In this document: piece by piece, positions 2,800 through 40,194 of the stretch
Position numbering within the stretch: position 1 is the stretch's first letter
Layout: each line of letters begins with the position of its first letter
IMG/VR virus record: IMGVR_UViG_3300037419_000866
Span: 1-42,231 of that record
Origin: a virus
DNA length: 42,231 bases
Reading direction: 5' to 3' (one strand)
Translations under genes and position numbers: made by a program
The notes under the pieces: model-generated
Told to the model about the DNA's origin: nothing
What the model saw: the letters and a program-made list of their open reading frames with translations, nothing else
Databases searched by the model: none

Positions 2800-3261
2800 T
2801 CACAAGAAACCCATCAGCCGATCGATCACGGCGTCCAGGTCGTCCCGGCTGTAGTTGGTCAGGATCCGCTGCAGGATCACGTTGCACGTCGCGTTGTACA
2901 GGTCGTCAAACTCTGACTTGTCCATGTTCGCGAAGCTGATCGACTTGGCCGTCAGGCGCGTCTCGCCCTTAAGATTTACGGCCATCTCGTAAAACCCGGC
3001 GAGCACGATCACATCGTTGCGGAACTGGTCGAAGTTCTTGCCGACGCGCTGGCCCTTGTACGTCGCTTCGGTCGGCTCCCAGGTGTCGAAAGCGAGGTTC
3101 AGCAGCGCAAAATATTTTCGGTGAAAGCGCGGGTTACGCTGCTGCTTCACCTGCGCTCGCACCGCGGCGCCGAGCTTCAGCTTTGCGATGTACTCCGCGG
3201 CCTGCGGGTCGGCCGGGATCAGTGCTCCGCCCGGCGCCTTCGTGAGGACGAGCTCTTTCAT
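2800..3261 (-). CDS. DUF1367-like phage protein (153 aa)
   Basis: The start was moved to the internal ATG (MKELVLTKAPGGALIP...), which overlaps the upstream stop as ATGA at 3258-3261. The Arg-rich extension in the track looks spurious. The pattern NPRFHRKYFALLN ... VLAGFYE ... SISFANMDKSEFDDLYN resembles DUF1367. Confidence 0.65.
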   Translation of the reverse strand: MKELVLTKAPGGALIPADPQAAEYIAKLKLGAAVRAQVKQQRNPRFHRKYFALLNLAFDTWEPTEATYKGQRVGKNFDQFRNDVIVLAGFYEMAVNLKGETRLTAKSISFANMDKSEFDDLYNATCNVILQRILTNYSRDDLDAVIDRLMGFL

Positions 3262-6773: not shown

Positions 6774-6793
6774 TACTGTATAGGTGTACAGTA
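6774..6793. promoter_or_regulatory. LexA (SOS) box TACTGTATAGGTGTACAGTA
   Basis: Exact CTGT-N8-ACAG with TA flanks, embedded in an 11-bp perfect inverted repeat (AAACTACTGTA / TACAGTAGTTT). It lies between the divergent starts 6753 (-) and 6822 (+). Confidence 0.8.
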
Positions 6794-6821: not shown

Positions 6822-7025
6822 ATGCACCGACAGGATGACTTGACCATGATGTTCGAAGCTATCGACGACGACAGCCGCCGCTATGTCCTTGCCGTACTTC
6901 GCGGCGAGTACGAGCGAACCATGACCTCATCGCGCCCGCGACTGCGCCTGGTCAAAGGTGCCAACTCGGTTGCGGATCTCGCGAATAACCAGATCAATTC
7001 GCGCTCGGTCCGCGGGGCCGGCTAA
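6822..7025 (+). CDS. Small acidic ORF (67 aa) downstream of the SOS box, convergent with the repressor gene and overlapping its 3' end by 99 nt; antirepressor candidate
   Basis: ATG at 6822 is preceded by GGAGGG at 5-nt spacing. In the non-overlapping 35 codons my hand count gives GC3 about 74%, GC1 about 63% and GC2 about 34%, a coding-like gradient. No other ORF occupies 6754-6926. Confidence 0.5.
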   Translation: MHRQDDLTMMFEAIDDDSRRYVLAVLRGEYERTMTSSRPRLRLVKGANSVADLANNQINSRSVRGAG

Positions 7026-7364
7026 GCGATACGTCTCGACCATGTCTACGATTGCCTTCAGGACTTCATCCGCTGCCCTAGCTTGGCCCTGGTCGTCGAC
7101 TGGAGGTATCGGCGCAGCCTCAGAATCGATCTGACGCGGCGCTGTTCCAGGCTTCCCATGTAACAGCCAGTGCGGATCAATCCCAAGAACCTCGCTGGCA
7201 CGTGTCAGCTTGGGGCCGGATATCTCCTTGATCCCTCCTGAGTCAACACTCTTCTCCCAATCGGTCGCAGTCGCATTCGATACGCCTACGGCAGCAGCGA
7301 ATGCCGTCTTAGACATCTCCTTGGCGATGCGTGCCGCCCGTAATCTTTGTTTCCAATCTTCCAT
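6927..7364 (-). CDS. cI: CI-type prophage repressor, XRE-family HTH, with no S24 peptidase domain (145 aa)
   Basis: The N-terminal HTH is MSKTAFAAAVGVSNATATDWEK. The gene is flanked by the operator clusters and is divergent from the cro-like gene. The C-terminal 70 aa are too short for, and lack, the Ser/Lys autocleavage module. Confidence 0.8.
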   Translation of the reverse strand: MEDWKQRLRAARIAKEMSKTAFAAAVGVSNATATDWEKSVDSGGIKEISGPKLTRASEVLGIDPHWLLHGKPGTAPRQIDSEAAPIPPVDDQGQARAADEVLKAIVDMVETYRLAGPADRARIDLVIREIRNRVGTFDQAQSRAR

Positions 7365-37267: not shown

Positions 37268-37722
37268 TGCCACCCAGCGCATTTATCGGCATGCTGGCCC
37301 AGGCCGCGCAGGACTGCCAGCGCAGGACCGGGATTCCGGCCTCCATCACCCTCGCCCAAGCCGCACTCGAATCCAGCTGGGGCGCGCGCGCGATCGGCAA
37401 CAACCTGTTCGGCATCAAGGCGGACAAGTCGTGGACCGGCCCGACCGTCAGTTTCGCGACAACGGAGCACCTCGGCGGCAAGGACGTCGGTCTGGTCGAC
37501 AAGTTCCGCCGCTACCCGAGCTGGCTGGACAGCATGATCGACCATGCCCAGTTCCTGCTGAAGAACCCGCGCTATGCCCCCTGCTTCAAGGAGACGAACG
37601 GCGCCGGCTGGGCCAAGCAGTTGCAGGCCTGTGGGTATGCCACCGACCCTGACTACGCCAAGAAGCTGATCGACATCATGCGCGGCCGGAACCTCGCCTT
37701 CTACGACGAGGTGCATTCGTGA
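37267..37722 (+). CDS. Endolysin, GH73 glucosaminidase (FlgJ-like) (151 aa)
   Basis: The start at MPPSAFIG overlaps the holin stop (TGATG). The motifs are LAQAALESSWG, NNLFGIKA and YATDPDYAKKL. Confidence 0.8.
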   Translation: MPPSAFIGMLAQAAQDCQRRTGIPASITLAQAALESSWGARAIGNNLFGIKADKSWTGPTVSFATTEHLGGKDVGLVDKFRRYPSWLDSMIDHAQFLLKNPRYAPCFKETNGAGWAKQLQACGYATDPDYAKKLIDIMRGRNLAFYDEVHS

Positions 37723-38228
37723 CCGCGCTCGAGCGCCTGCTCGTCGGGCTGGCCGTGGCCGTGGTGCTTGCCACGGGCGCATGGATTGGCGTGCACGGCT
37801 ACGGCGCCGAGCAGTACGACGCCGGATACGCGGCTGCTGTTGACGCCGGCAAGAAGCAGCGCGACCGCGATACCTATCTCAACCAGCAAACCGAGGACGA
37901 GCTGCGCACCATGCTCGCCGCGAAGGACGCTGACGCACATCGAAAGGAACAGGAATATGCATCGAATCTCGCTGATGCTCAGCGCCGCGTGCGCGCTGGC
38001 ACTGACCGGCTGCGCTGTCCCGCAGCAGATCCCGTACAGCCCGGCGCCACGGCCGCAGATCGACCCGCTGCCGCCGGCGCTCCAGCTGACGGACAAGGAC
38101 CGGACGTTGTGCCGGAAGCTGCTGCAGACCTTCTCAGCATCGCCGCCGACGTTGCGGGACTCGTGCGGCGATACGACCAGGTCGTCGAACGGTTCGAAGC
38201 CTGCCGGGCCGTGAACGCGAGGCCGTGA
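37719..38228 (+). CDS. Rz: i-spanin (Rz-like)
   Basis: It has a GTG start overlapping the endolysin stop, an N-terminal TM segment LLVGLAVAVVLATGAWIG, and a charged coiled-coil periplasmic part. Confidence 0.75.
   Translation: MTALERLLVGLAVAVVLATGAWIGVHGYGAEQYDAGYAAAVDAGKKQRDRDTYLNQQTEDELRTMLAAKDADAHRKEQEYASNLADAQRRVRAGTDRLRCPAADPVQPGATAADRPAAAGAPADGQGPDVVPEAAADLLSIAADVAGLVRRYDQVVERFEACRAVNARP
37957..38214 (+). CDS. Rz1: o-spanin (Rz1-like lipoprotein) embedded in the +1 frame of Rz
   Basis: The ATG at 37957 follows AAAGGAACAGGAAT. It has the signal and lipobox MHRISLMLSAACALALTGC and a Pro-rich mature part. Confidence 0.75.
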   Translation: MHRISLMLSAACALALTGCAVPQQIPYSPAPRPQIDPLPPALQLTDKDRTLCRKLLQTFSASPPTLRDSCGDTTRSSNGSKPAGP

Positions 38229-38365
38229 TGGATTTCCACGTTAGCACCCCGGTGGAGACCGAGCTCGTCATGGAGACGGAGAACGGTCGCGTGGTTGAAG
38301 TGTGGCCGGCGCCGCCCTCGTCGCTACCCGCCGCCGCGCCGGTTCCGCCAGCACCCGGCAAATGA
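38228..38365 (+). CDS. 45-aa ORF coupled to the Rz stop (uncertain)
   Basis: Hand translation gives MDFHVSTPVETELVMETENGRVVEVWPAPPSSLPAAAPVPPAPGK, with a TGATG overlap at 38226-38230. It conflicts with the 3' end of minus ORF 38268..38480. Confidence 0.3.
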   Translation: MDFHVSTPVETELVMETENGRVVEVWPAPPSSLPAAAPVPPAPGK

Positions 38366-38480
38366 CTGCGAAGCCGATACCGCGGCTGACAAGGAAGTTG
38401 GCCGCGACATGTACGTCATCCATGGCCAGCGCCTGTTCGACAGCGCGGGCAAGTTCGGTGTTTGGGCGGTCGGTGAGCAT
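38268..38480 (-). CDS. 70-aa ORF downstream of the SOS-box promoter (uncertain; antirepressor or SOS-effector candidate)
   Basis: Track ORF. The first 45 aa look helical and HTH-like (ELARAVEQALAMDDVHVAANFLVSRGIGFAVICRVLA), while the C-terminal part is Arg/Pro-rich. Position-specific GC is symmetric with the opposite plus frame, so composition cannot decide between them. Confidence 0.35.
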   Translation of the reverse strand: MLTDRPNTELARAVEQALAMDDVHVAANFLVSRGIGFAVICRVLAEPARRRVATRAAPATLQPRDRSPSP

Positions 38481-38530
38481 GCTCTGATCGTACGGCCACC
38501 ACGCAGCCAGCAGCTTGCGACCGCTCAGCC

Positions 38531-38560
38531 ATTATACTGTGCGTTCATACAGTATTTCAT
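38531..38560 (-). promoter_or_regulatory. SOS-regulated promoter: LexA box TACTGTATGAACGCACAGTA (38535-38554) overlapping a TATAAT -10
   Basis: The minus strand reads ATGAAA (38555-38560), an 18-nt spacer, then TATAAT (38531-38536). The CTGT-N8-ACAG box fills the spacer and runs into the -10, the same layout as the E. coli recA promoter (TACTGTATGAGCATACAGTATAAT). Confidence 0.65.
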
Positions 38561-38567
38561 CGCGAAC

Positions 38568-38864
38568 ATGTACGGAAAAGTGAAGCGGCTCCGCGACCAC
38601 GGTCGGCGCTTGTCGAACCGAGAAATCAACCAGATGCCGGCCGTCGAAGGCGCGCTCACGCTCGCCGCGGTGCGGTCGACCTATGTCCTTGAGATCCGGC
38701 GCCACGATTCGCAGGTCGGGCCCGGCCTGCTGCCAGCGCTGTACGAGGCACGTCTCGTGGCCATGCACACGGGAGGCATGCTGTTCAGGGGCGAAGAGCG
38801 GCCGCAGGGTGACGATGGGCCGGCGTACGTGCAGGAGTGGTCGGTGATGGTCGAGCCAAAATAG
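38568..38864 (+). CDS. Hypothetical moron protein (98 aa)
   Basis: My hand count gives GC3 about 82%, GC1 about 72% and GC2 about 44%, which supports the plus frame over the antisense ORF 38532..38768. The codons upstream (TTA TAC TGT ... ATA CAG TAT) are atypical, so the start was placed at ATG 38568. The RBS is weak. Confidence 0.55.
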   Translation: MYGKVKRLRDHGRRLSNREINQMPAVEGALTLAAVRSTYVLEIRRHDSQVGPGLLPALYEARLVAMHTGGMLFRGEERPQGDDGPAYVQEWSVMVEPK

Positions 38865-39093
38865 CCAGATTTTTTACTGAAATACAGCGGTAAGTCATTG
38901 TTTTTCGTGGTGGCATACAGTGGTTTTTGGTGGGTCAAAAATGAGCCGAGAACGACCGTAAAGCACTGAGTTTATAGGGGGAATTGCCTTCAACCGTACC
39001 CTACCGATACGATATAGCTGCGAAGGCTTGAAACGCAGTATCCATGCGGGTTTCAGCGATTCCTACAGAAATTCGTAGAATATTTTACGAAAA
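38865..39093. other. attP region (AT-richer, repeat-rich, adjacent to the int 3' end)
   Basis: The position is lambda-like. Direct repeats ATACAG(C/T)GGT occur at about 38883 and about 38917. Inverted repeats are TTGAAAC...GTTTCA at about 39028-39053 and TTCGTA-N8-TACGAA at 39072-39091. The core site cannot be defined without the host sequence. Confidence 0.55.
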
Positions 39094-40194
39094 TCACCCG
39101 GCCGCAACGATCTTCCATTCGCCGCGAAGGTCATCATACTTGGCCGTCGTCGCCGCATGCTTGTGCCCCAAGATCATCTGCGCGAATTCGCCGCCGTACT
39201 CGTCCCGGTAGAGGCGCTCCGCCAAGCTTCGGATCTCATGGAACGTTACCGGCGTGCGCCCTTCTTTTGGCTTGACGCCCGCCGTCTCCCGCGCGGAAAT
39301 GAACGCCTGGCCTAGCCCTTTCCCATCGACGCGGTGTCCCGGCTTGACCGTTCCTGTGTTGCGCACGTGGTGCACGAGGAAATGGCTGGCAATCGAGTCG
39401 CGGCAGCTTTTGACCACGTCGGCGATCGACATTCCGAGCTTCGCCAGCCGGATTTCGCCATCGAGGGCGAGCCGAGTTTTCCCGCCGCTCTTCCCTTGGG
39501 CCACGTGCAGGCGCCCGTCCCGCCAGTCCGAGAATTTCATGGACAAGATGTCTTCACGGCGCTGTCCGGTGAGCAGCGCGATGTTCATGGCGTTCCTCAG
39601 CCAAACTGGGCCCGCGTCGCGGATCGCCAAAAACTGTTCGAAGCTCATTCGCTCGCGCGCGACTACGACGCGCGGCGCGCGCGTTGCATCGACCGGGCTG
39701 GCGCCGTTCTTGATCAGACCCTGAGTCTCGGCCCACCGGAATATGTCCTTGAGCCGGGCTCGCATCATCGTCGCGGCCGTCGCGCCGTGGGCCTCCTTGT
39801 ATTCCTTGAGGTATGTCGCAATCGTCTCGGTGTCGATGTCGGCCAAACGGCGCTTCGCGAAGGCCGTAGCCTCCAGGCGTCGCCAGTAGACAGCGTAGTT
39901 GATCAGCGTGTTTTCAGCCGGCTTTGTCTCCTCTGCCCACAGCTGCTTGTACACGGGAAGCCACCCTTCCAGCGTGTACTCTGTCTTCCCCATCACCCAG
40001 TCGACGAGCGACGAGGGCTCACGTGTCGCAAGCGCGGCATTCGCCTTGCGCGCCTCTTGAAAGGCATGTGCGCGGTCCCTGCCGAGACCCTTTTGCCTCT
40101 TCGTGTCGGGGTCCTTATAGTAGAAGTAGCCCGCCGGATTCTGGTACAGGTTCGGCGGGAAGCCACGGTTCTTCGCTAATCGTTTGCGGCCCAT
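39094..40194 (-). CDS. int: Tyrosine integrase, lambda Int family (366 aa)
   Basis: It has the N-terminal arm-binding-type motif FPPNLYQNPAGYFYYKDPDTKRQKGLG and the catalytic region ALLTGQRREDI...FHEIRSLA...LGHKHAATTAKY (R, H-x-x-R, Y). Confidence 0.9.
   Translation of the reverse strand: MGRKRLAKNRGFPPNLYQNPAGYFYYKDPDTKRQKGLGRDRAHAFQEARKANAALATREPSSLVDWVMGKTEYTLEGWLPVYKQLWAEETKPAENTLINYAVYWRRLEATAFAKRRLADIDTETIATYLKEYKEAHGATAATMMRARLKDIFRWAETQGLIKNGASPVDATRAPRVVVARERMSFEQFLAIRDAGPVWLRNAMNIALLTGQRREDILSMKFSDWRDGRLHVAQGKSGGKTRLALDGEIRLAKLGMSIADVVKSCRDSIASHFLVHHVRNTGTVKPGHRVDGKGLGQAFISARETAGVKPKEGRTPVTFHEIRSLAERLYRDEYGGEFAQMILGHKHAATTAKYDDLRGEWKIVAAG

Follow-up and report, generated by a model that had tools for sequence, protein, structure and literature searches.

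A putative LexA operator in front of a conserved 98-codon gene between the lysis genes and the integrase of a temperate phage

LexA-gated genes of prophages are how many temperate phages sense DNA damage in the host. Those known encode mostly antirepressors and a few toxins; tum of coliphage 186 and the Salmonella Gifsy antirepressors are LexA-controlled prophage genes. λ cI expressed from PRM and the genes of P22 immI are leaderless phage regulatory genes with back-to-back promoters, and in immI Mnt holds the ant gene off. In Bacillus phage GIL01, the main lysogenic promoter is where LexA and gp7 act together to keep up lysogeny (PMC4551915). Here, we analysed 42,231 nucleotides (nt) of viral DNA (IMG/VR record IMGVR_UViG_3300037419_000866, positions 1 to 42,231; this whole stretch is called the window below). 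A LexA (SOS) box lies in it at 38535-38554, between two divergent small genes that encode a 98-amino-acid (aa) protein on the plus strand (38568-38864) and a 70-aa protein on the minus strand (38268-38480). An earlier note on this DNA had assigned a leftward, recA-like promoter to the box. Our comparisons suggest that the site is probably a functional LexA operator and that its main target would be the rightward 98-aa gene. As in GIL01, a temperate phage would use host LexA directly at one of its own promoters; the difference is that LexA would gate an accessory gene at the prophage end in the window phage.

The site, TACTGTGCGTTCATACAGTA, matched the extended LexA box at 12 of 12 positions (TACTGT-GCGTTCAT-ACAGTA). 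Its core, CTGTGCGTTCATACAG (38537-38552), is the exact CTGT-N8-ACAG palindrome that the earlier note had described, and this motif is the SOS-box consensus in most Betaproteobacteria (PMC6595937). A scan of the whole window for the extended box with up to two mismatches returned only two sites, 38535-38554 and 6774-6793, where 0.14 would be expected by chance. The site at 6774-6793 is conserved independently, which agrees with the earlier count of two SOS boxes. The box at 38535-38554 sits within the 87-nt gap that separates the 98-aa and 70-aa genes. It was found at the same position in nine further distinct relatives, with invariant arms and a variable spacer. The site thus presents a consensus palindrome, an overlap with a predicted core promoter and arms that are conserved around a free spacer at orthologous positions, as is looked for in a LexA operator of the Gamma/Betaproteobacterial type.

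The box could lie between genes or within one, as a 189-aa plus-strand open reading frame (ORF; 38295-38864) runs across it. The 15 homologues of this ORF cover only its C-terminal half. Conservation in the alignment begins exactly at M92 of the 189-aa reading, which corresponds to the ATG at 38568, whereas the extensions upstream are mutually unrelated. A single long plus-strand coding sequence through the box, named by the earlier note as one of the findings that would overturn its proposal, was therefore ruled out. Since protein conservation starts at ATG 38568, the 98-aa ORF (MYGKVKRLR...QEWSVMVEPK), already proposed to be coding and now supported by these 15 close homologues, is the gene, and the box is intergenic, as had been claimed.

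To compare promoters, we fetched 68 loci encoding relatives of the 98-aa protein at a close to moderate distance and compared their upstream regions; the nearest genome matches of the window were prophages of Massilia and allied Oxalobacteraceae. Two arrangements matter here. The majority type comprised 53 distinct upstream regions without a LexA box, and the window type comprised ten distinct loci, the window included. In the majority type, a TAnnnT hexamer, usually within the extended -10 element TGCTACACT, ended 6 nt (42/53) or 7 nt (6/53) before the ATG, and the TGn extension was present in 44 of the 53. By standard promoter geometry, a -10 element at a spacing of 6 nt should start the mRNA at the A of the start codon, so the transcript should be leaderless. 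This configuration, with the -10 element 6-7 nt before the ATG and no Shine-Dalgarno sequence, was found for the 98-aa gene in 48 of 53 box-less relatives and also in a distant subfamily described below (MYS), but not in the window. A leaderless promoter directly before ATG 38568 was rejected because no TAnnnT lies 6-7 nt upstream.

The window type carries its -10-like hexamer further away. TATACT (38533-38538, plus strand), the putative rightward -10 element of the 98-aa gene, overlaps the left arm of the box and was invariant in 10/10 window-type loci, where it is fused to the box as TATACTGT. Its distance from the ATG of the leftward gene is 53-58 nt, at most 1 nt off the position of the majority-type TGnTACACT -10 element. 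The distance between the two ATG codons was 65-67 nt in 25 of the 29 box-less loci that have both genes, and 87-88 nt in box-bearing loci (78 or 94 nt in three outliers). The simplest reading of TATACT and the box would be the rightward promoter of the majority type, its -10 element now separated from the ATG by the box and a leader of ~22 nt. The predicted start lies near 38545, inside the box, so that the box overlaps both the hexamer and the predicted start site. A usable -35 element on the plus strand was seen in L023/L024 (TTGAGG-18-TATACT) and in L026, each scoring 9/12, where the score counts matches to the 12 positions of the sigma-70 hexamers. With the box over the -10 element and the start, the layout resembles that seen at sulA or uvrA in E. 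coli.

The association of the box with the 98-aa gene extends well beyond these close relatives. A profile search placed 185 clusters at 50% identity in the family (E ≤ 1e-3), whose backbones and hosts include P22-like podoviruses of Oxalobacteraceae, temperate Pseudomonas phages and one inovirus. We counted exact CTGT-N8-ACAG boxes at most 34 nt from the ATG, or across it, in 93 distinct upstream regions of the family. Such a box, adjoining or covering the start codon, was present in 34 of the 93, and in 15 of them it extends from the -10 element across the start site and the ATG into codons 2-3. We estimated the chance rate at ~1 in 1000 per region, and the LexA box thus appears to be a property of the 98-aa gene family. 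Alignments A5, A7 and A8 were too diverse to be used in pattern scans, and P0102 on its own returned no viral loci.

The MYS subfamily is a distant one with 25 loci (L081-L105), of which 23 are distinct; the exact box stands at -8 in 16 of the 23, with three more differing by one base. In its consensus, GCTATACTGTnnnnATGTACAGTAT, the box stretches from the -10 element and the start site over the ATG into codons 2-3 of a leaderless gene; an example is TATACTGTnnnnATGTACAGTAT (e.g. in L088, L097 and L102 at 2987-3011). Codon 3 is invariably an AGY serine codon (AGT in 13 loci), which points to selection at the DNA level. The box was retained whether the left neighbour was a member of the 70-aa family, a HicA gene, a DUF2471 gene or absent. 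From its centre to the leftward start codon the distance is ~64-72 nt, which places it upstream of the leftward gene and outside the leftward core promoter. Our literature search found no description of a SOS box embedded in a leaderless start codon. Moreover, Pseudomonas phage Medea1 has a perfect box 14 nt before the ATG of its homologue, in a slot between the lysis cassette and the integrase, and Medea1-like loci have the box at -28 in 8/8. In the inovirus PfAC02b (OR790969.1, L107), the homologue begins 9 nt after a perfect box, beside a repressor gene. That homologue is flanked by the repressor gene and a Gabija GajA gene, and appears to be annotated too short (2591-2794), the conserved ORF being 2501-2794.

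A homologue without a LexA box was found in phage PG1 (OQ504958.1, L080 3297-4315), 3 nt downstream of a gene for a SOS-response-associated peptidase (SRAP), and likewise in vB_PstS-pAN. The gene order in both places the homologue between the integrase and Rz/endolysin. Comparison of the window family with the PG1 protein by hhalign gave a probability of 95.6% (E 1.2e-8). Judged by gene order, the peptidase neighbour is a second, independent link of the family to DNA damage. The same linkage was looked for in Massilia-type loci and was absent there.

The 98-aa protein itself is a soluble β-sandwich according to its AlphaFold2 model, which has a predicted local distance difference test score (pLDDT) of 91, six strands and one short helix. 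Foldseek returned a weak resemblance to a pleckstrin homology (PH)-like fold (Ran-binding domain) only, with a best E of 0.04 and a template modelling (TM) score of 0.53; a PH-domain label was not adopted. Foldseek against viral structure models gave nothing, and there was no sequence match in Pfam, NCBIfam, PADLOC or the PDB. The only family match was a weak one to phrog_5560 (E 0.005), a family of unknown function that holds hypothetical proteins of PG1 and vB_PstS-pAN. These are homologues of the window family, and the PG1 protein matches phrog_5560 with E 2e-38. The phrog_5560 members in PG1 occupy the same slot between the lysis genes and the integrase. The differences are that the window protein matches the profile weakly and that the PG1 gene is coupled to the SRAP gene instead of a LexA box. 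We found no description of the 98-aa family in the literature searched. The homology and structure searches that had been suggested for this product thus yielded a widespread family, but no match that bears a function.

Taken together, these observations favour the following arrangement. In the lysogen, host LexA bound to 38535-38554 would cover the TATACT -10 element and the start site and, as its position overlaps both, would block RNA polymerase. Upon DNA damage, RecA would be activated, LexA would cleave itself, and the 98-aa protein would be made from the ~22-nt leader. The family would be ancestrally leaderless, with a -10 element 6 nt before the ATG, and would have been placed under LexA control repeatedly. 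In one clade, the -10 element, the start site and the ATG together with codons 2-3 would have come to contain the box. In the clade of the window, the unit of TATACT plus box would stand ~23 nt further upstream than in the embedded clade. In most Massilia prophages, the box would have decayed; the sequence that most of them carry, TACACTCGGCCCATGTACGG, resembles an embedded box after decay, and the N-terminal Met-Tyr-Ser/Gly looks like a remnant of the operator. The divergent 70-aa gene would have its own leaderless promoter outside the operator and would not be primarily LexA-controlled. The 98-aa protein would then act as an accessory effector, timed by the SOS response, on a conserved target of the host or the phage.

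Several points weigh against this arrangement. The plus-strand promoter of the window has no convincing -35 element (~6-7/12), whereas a promoter on the minus strand scores 10/12. The rightward leader would have no Shine-Dalgarno sequence. The host is taken to be Massilia-like from the relatives of the phage only, and the LexA specificity assumed for it is derived in the same way. We must also note that most Massilia-type relatives (53 upstream regions) would express the 98-aa gene from a promoter that has no LexA box, which implies that SOS control is not essential to the role of the protein.

The alternatives turn on the leftward gene and its promoters. The 70-aa ORF, which the earlier note had placed under its leftward promoter, is a real gene, to judge from 13 database homologues (E 1e-21 to 1e-9) and from 36 distinct syntenic copies that align. 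Of the database homologues, 11 are 62-73 aa long, while the remaining two were called as longer genes (99 and 116 aa). The protein consists of a core of ~50 aa, ending in an invariant CRVLAEPARRR, and a variable Pro/Ala-rich tail. Its AlphaFold2 model (pLDDT 76, ~90 in the core) is a bundle of three helices (5-19, 23-32 and 37-55), so the label "helix-turn-helix (HTH)-like" that it had been given is plausible. For this protein, nothing significant came from Foldseek, PDB sequence profiles, Pfam, NCBIfam or PADLOC; a hit to NF005476 was noise (20.8 bits against a cut-off of 215). The searches proposed for this product thus revealed a conserved three-helix protein, but not its relationship to any described fold or family.

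The 70-aa gene appears to have a promoter of its own. TACGAT (38487-38492, minus strand) ends exactly 6 nt before its ATG, without a Shine-Dalgarno sequence, as would befit the -10 element of a leaderless mRNA, and it lies outside the LexA box. Of 37 distinct loci, 27 had TAnnnT at exactly this spacing and 32 had the looser nAnnnT. Further upstream, TTGA-N6-TCAA was found in 23 of 37 loci bearing the 70-aa gene and in 2 of 24 loci without it. Its centre was 40.5 nt from the 70-aa ATG in 18 loci and 41.5 nt in three, a distance that does not shift with the length of the gap to the 98-aa gene. This fixed tie to the 70-aa gene suggests that the leftward gene follows its own promoter logic. The window has a degenerate counterpart, TTGCGACCGCTCAG (38515-38528), centred 41.5 nt from A38480. 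The position of TTGA-N6-TCAA is that of a class II activator site. A perfect FNR-like sequence, TTGATnnnnATCAA, occurs in L006 and L053, and TTGA-N6-TCAA is also found in L005, L013, L014, L043-47 and other loci.

In its layout, the locus recalls λ cI and PRM and the mnt and arc-ant genes of P22 immI: two divergent small genes lie 65-88 nt apart, and in most relatives a -10 element stands 6 nt before each ATG. It differs from these systems in that the window proteins have no homology to CI, Cro, Mnt or Arc and that the protein expected to bind the operator is host LexA.

The alternative that survives best, though we consider it doubtful, is a bidirectional operator in the window phage, with the conserved rightward promoter and a newly gained leftward one. 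The earlier note was right that a recA-like promoter can be read on the minus strand: ATGAAA (38560-38555), an 18-nt spacer that holds the box, and TATAAT (38536-38531). As in the E. coli recA operator, the box fills the spacer between the -35 and -10 elements and its right arm runs into the -10 element. In our scan of 38100-39150, this was the sole sigma-70-like match and hence the best in the region (10/12). The leftward promoter would add a SOS-inducible, leadered 70-aa transcript to the constitutive leaderless one, and all the evidence for rightward control would apply as well. The perfect TATAAT arises from a single G-to-A difference from the relatives (GTTATA to ATTATA). It was found in the window only; the nine other window-type loci have TATAAC (8) or TATAGC (1), and the best minus-strand promoter near the box in relatives scored at most 8/12. 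The leftward promoter therefore occurs in one of ten window-type loci and has no evolutionary support. Moreover, the 70-aa gene already has a conserved promoter, and the 44-nt leader would offer only a weak AGAG before the ATG. Unlike the recA operator, then, the arrangement in the window is kept in no relative, and the conserved geometry lies on the opposite strand, with the box over the -10 element and the start. Judged by consensus match only, the window has its stronger promoter on the minus strand, and for this reason a bidirectional arrangement specific to the window stays a rival to rightward control.

A further alternative concerns the role of the 98-aa protein, which might be a LexA-controlled antirepressor after the logic of Tum or the Gifsy proteins, inactivating the phage repressor after DNA damage. 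That repressor (145 aa; 6927-7364, minus strand) has an HTH_3 domain and, by Pfam, no Peptidase_S24 domain, in line with the earlier description of it as non-cleavable; induction by the SOS response would thus need an antirepressor. As with tum and the Gifsy genes, a small prophage gene has its own predicted LexA-repressed promoter and stands close to the prophage end, at a distance from the immunity region, and the repressor of the phage has no self-cleavage domain. The position of the PfAC02b homologue directly downstream of a repressor gene and the divergent small helical partner, reminiscent of Mnt in P22 immI, also speak for such a role. However, Pfam, NCBIfam, PADLOC, PDB sequence and Foldseek searches revealed no similarity to a known antirepressor family; the 98-aa protein resembles the tum and Gifsy products in neither sequence nor fold. 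Its family is often box-less and is not tied to one repressor type. The extended -10, leaderless promoter without a box in 53 relatives, 24 of which have no helical partner, is a poor fit for a protein that would destroy lysogeny.

Beside its repressor gene, the window phage also has a second gene with a predicted LexA-controlled promoter, and this gene is the better fit for an antirepressor. It encodes 67 aa (6822-7025), starts 28 nt after the first SOS box, TACTGTATAGGTGTACAGTA (6774-6793), has the good Shine-Dalgarno sequence GGAGGG and converges on the 3' end of the repressor gene, overlapping it. Twelve homologues of the 67-aa gene were found, almost all of the same length, and the box is kept at -46 in all four relatives whose upstream region could be compared. 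Four of the six repressor-bearing contigs found also carry the 67-aa gene. The 98-aa gene was found together with the repressor in one contig (IMGVR 3300044706_000037), and no 98-aa match was obtained in two near-complete contigs that have this repressor together with the 67-aa module. Box 1, the 67-aa gene and the repressor therefore likely form the SOS induction module, acting through an antirepressor or through antisense interference, and the 67-aa gene is, by this co-occurrence, a better antirepressor candidate than the 98-aa gene. Since the latter occurs on many backbones, was not detected in these two repressor contigs and is often box-less, we rate the antirepressor role as unlikely and favour an accessory effector.

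The proposal of the earlier note, in which the site is a leftward-only, recA-like operator and the 98-aa gene is a separate matter, is very unlikely. Its SOS-induced transcript would cover the 70-aa HTH-like gene and run antisense into the lysis end. The promoter geometry in the window fits it, the 70-aa gene is real and helical, and a scan of the stretch from its stop codon to Rz found no terminator. Nevertheless, TATAAT is unconserved, and the 70-aa gene has a -10 hexamer of its own at a spacing of 6 nt from the ATG. It is the 98-aa gene, not the 70-aa gene, that the box accompanies in the MYS, Medea1 and Pf clades, including in loci without the latter, and in the embedded clade its distance of ~64-72 nt from the leftward start puts it beyond the core promoter. 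A leftward transcript as the main output of the box is not supported, given that the box tracks the rightward gene across distant clades, whatever the left neighbour. Antisense control of Rz/Rz1 likewise found no specific support; the leftward gene runs towards and overlaps a conserved 45-aa late gene and not Rz itself. Finally, a chance or relic palindrome without a regulatory role is hardly credible: the box has decayed in one relative (L024), but the perfect 12/12 match has an expectation well below 0.14, the arms are conserved around varying spacers in ten loci, and the box recurs with the 98-aa family in at least four clades.

Rightward control of the 98-aa gene also has to be seen in its surroundings, between the lysis genes and the integrase of a phage with a P22-like portal protein. 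The Rz-like spanin gene (37719-38228, plus strand; PHROG Rz-like spanin, E 1.6e-9) contains an embedded ORF for an Rz1-like lipoprotein (37957-38214, plus strand; PHROG Rz-like spanin, E 7e-3). Its stop codon overlaps the ATG of the 45-aa ORF (38228-38365, plus strand) in TGATG. The N-terminus of the latter, MDFHV(I/S)TP, is kept in at least eight loci (L015, L018, L022, L023/24, L036, L037, L116 and L117) and lies outside the overlap with the 70-aa gene. The 45-aa ORF follows an Rz or holin-like gene in the conserved loci and is probably an unannotated late gene. The Pro/Ala-rich tail of its product and the tail of the 70-aa gene are encoded on opposite strands of the same segment (38268-38365). 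The three overlapping or adjacent ORFs (45, 70 and 98 aa) singled out by the earlier note were all present as conserved genes and, to judge from this conservation, are probably all translated. Pfam, NCBIfam and PADLOC gave no meaningful match for the 45-aa product, and no relevant RNA gene came up when the region was scanned with Rfam and for tRNAs. There was no match of 37700-39100 to INPHARED phages by megablast, nor of the 70-aa and 67-aa products to phages by tblastn.

Downstream of the 98-aa gene, a low-GC gap resembling a phage attachment site (attP; 38865-39093), in which GC falls to 0.48, precedes a λ-type tyrosine integrase gene (39094-40194, minus strand; Pfam Phage_integrase and Arm-DNA-bind_1). 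The idea that the segment between the lysis cassette and attP/int is a moron slot was borne out by the relatives, in which BrnT, HicA or DUF2471 genes stand beside the 98-aa gene. In L008, L027, L030, L039, L087, L026, L090, L101 and L105, the left neighbour was replaced by a gene for BrnT toxin (with two TTGTATATACGATAAA repeats) or HicA toxin or by a DUF2471 gene, and such replacement marks the slot as a cargo hotspot. BrnT and HicA genes were confined to such neighbouring positions in other loci; Pfam and PADLOC gave no match to a known toxin, antitoxin or defence protein for any of the 98-, 70- and 45-aa products. A further CTGT-N8-ACAG box, CTGTYGATCYRTACAG, absent from the window, was observed downstream of the 98-aa gene in L001 (7421-7436), L015 (6931-6946) and L023 (6925-6940). 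It adjoins a conserved palindrome and a tRNA gene or fragment and lies upstream of unrelated cargo genes, of 312 aa in L001 and 137 aa in L023; from this position, it may be a SOS box carried in an attachment-site arm. A SIR2-like assignment of the 312-aa L001 gene had no support in Pfam.

The regulatory element itself is of a known kind, whereas the gene family and the operator embedded in the start codon of its relatives are new variants. An unannotated protein family is linked to the SOS regulon by comparison across several phage lineages, and it brings with it an unusual operator design, the box in a leaderless start codon, and the rearrangement of this design in the clade of the window. 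The 98-aa gene is set apart from the likelier induction module, formed by box 1 and the 67-aa gene beside the repressor. For experimenters, this work defines a small gene, its putative operator and a predicted direction of control. More tentatively, the 98-aa family may represent a new and widespread class of SOS-induced phage effectors, whose target could be RecA, LexA, or the division or replication/repair machinery, or which could be a new kind of antirepressor. If so, the Met-Tyr-Ser/Gly N-terminus would be a fossil of the operator.

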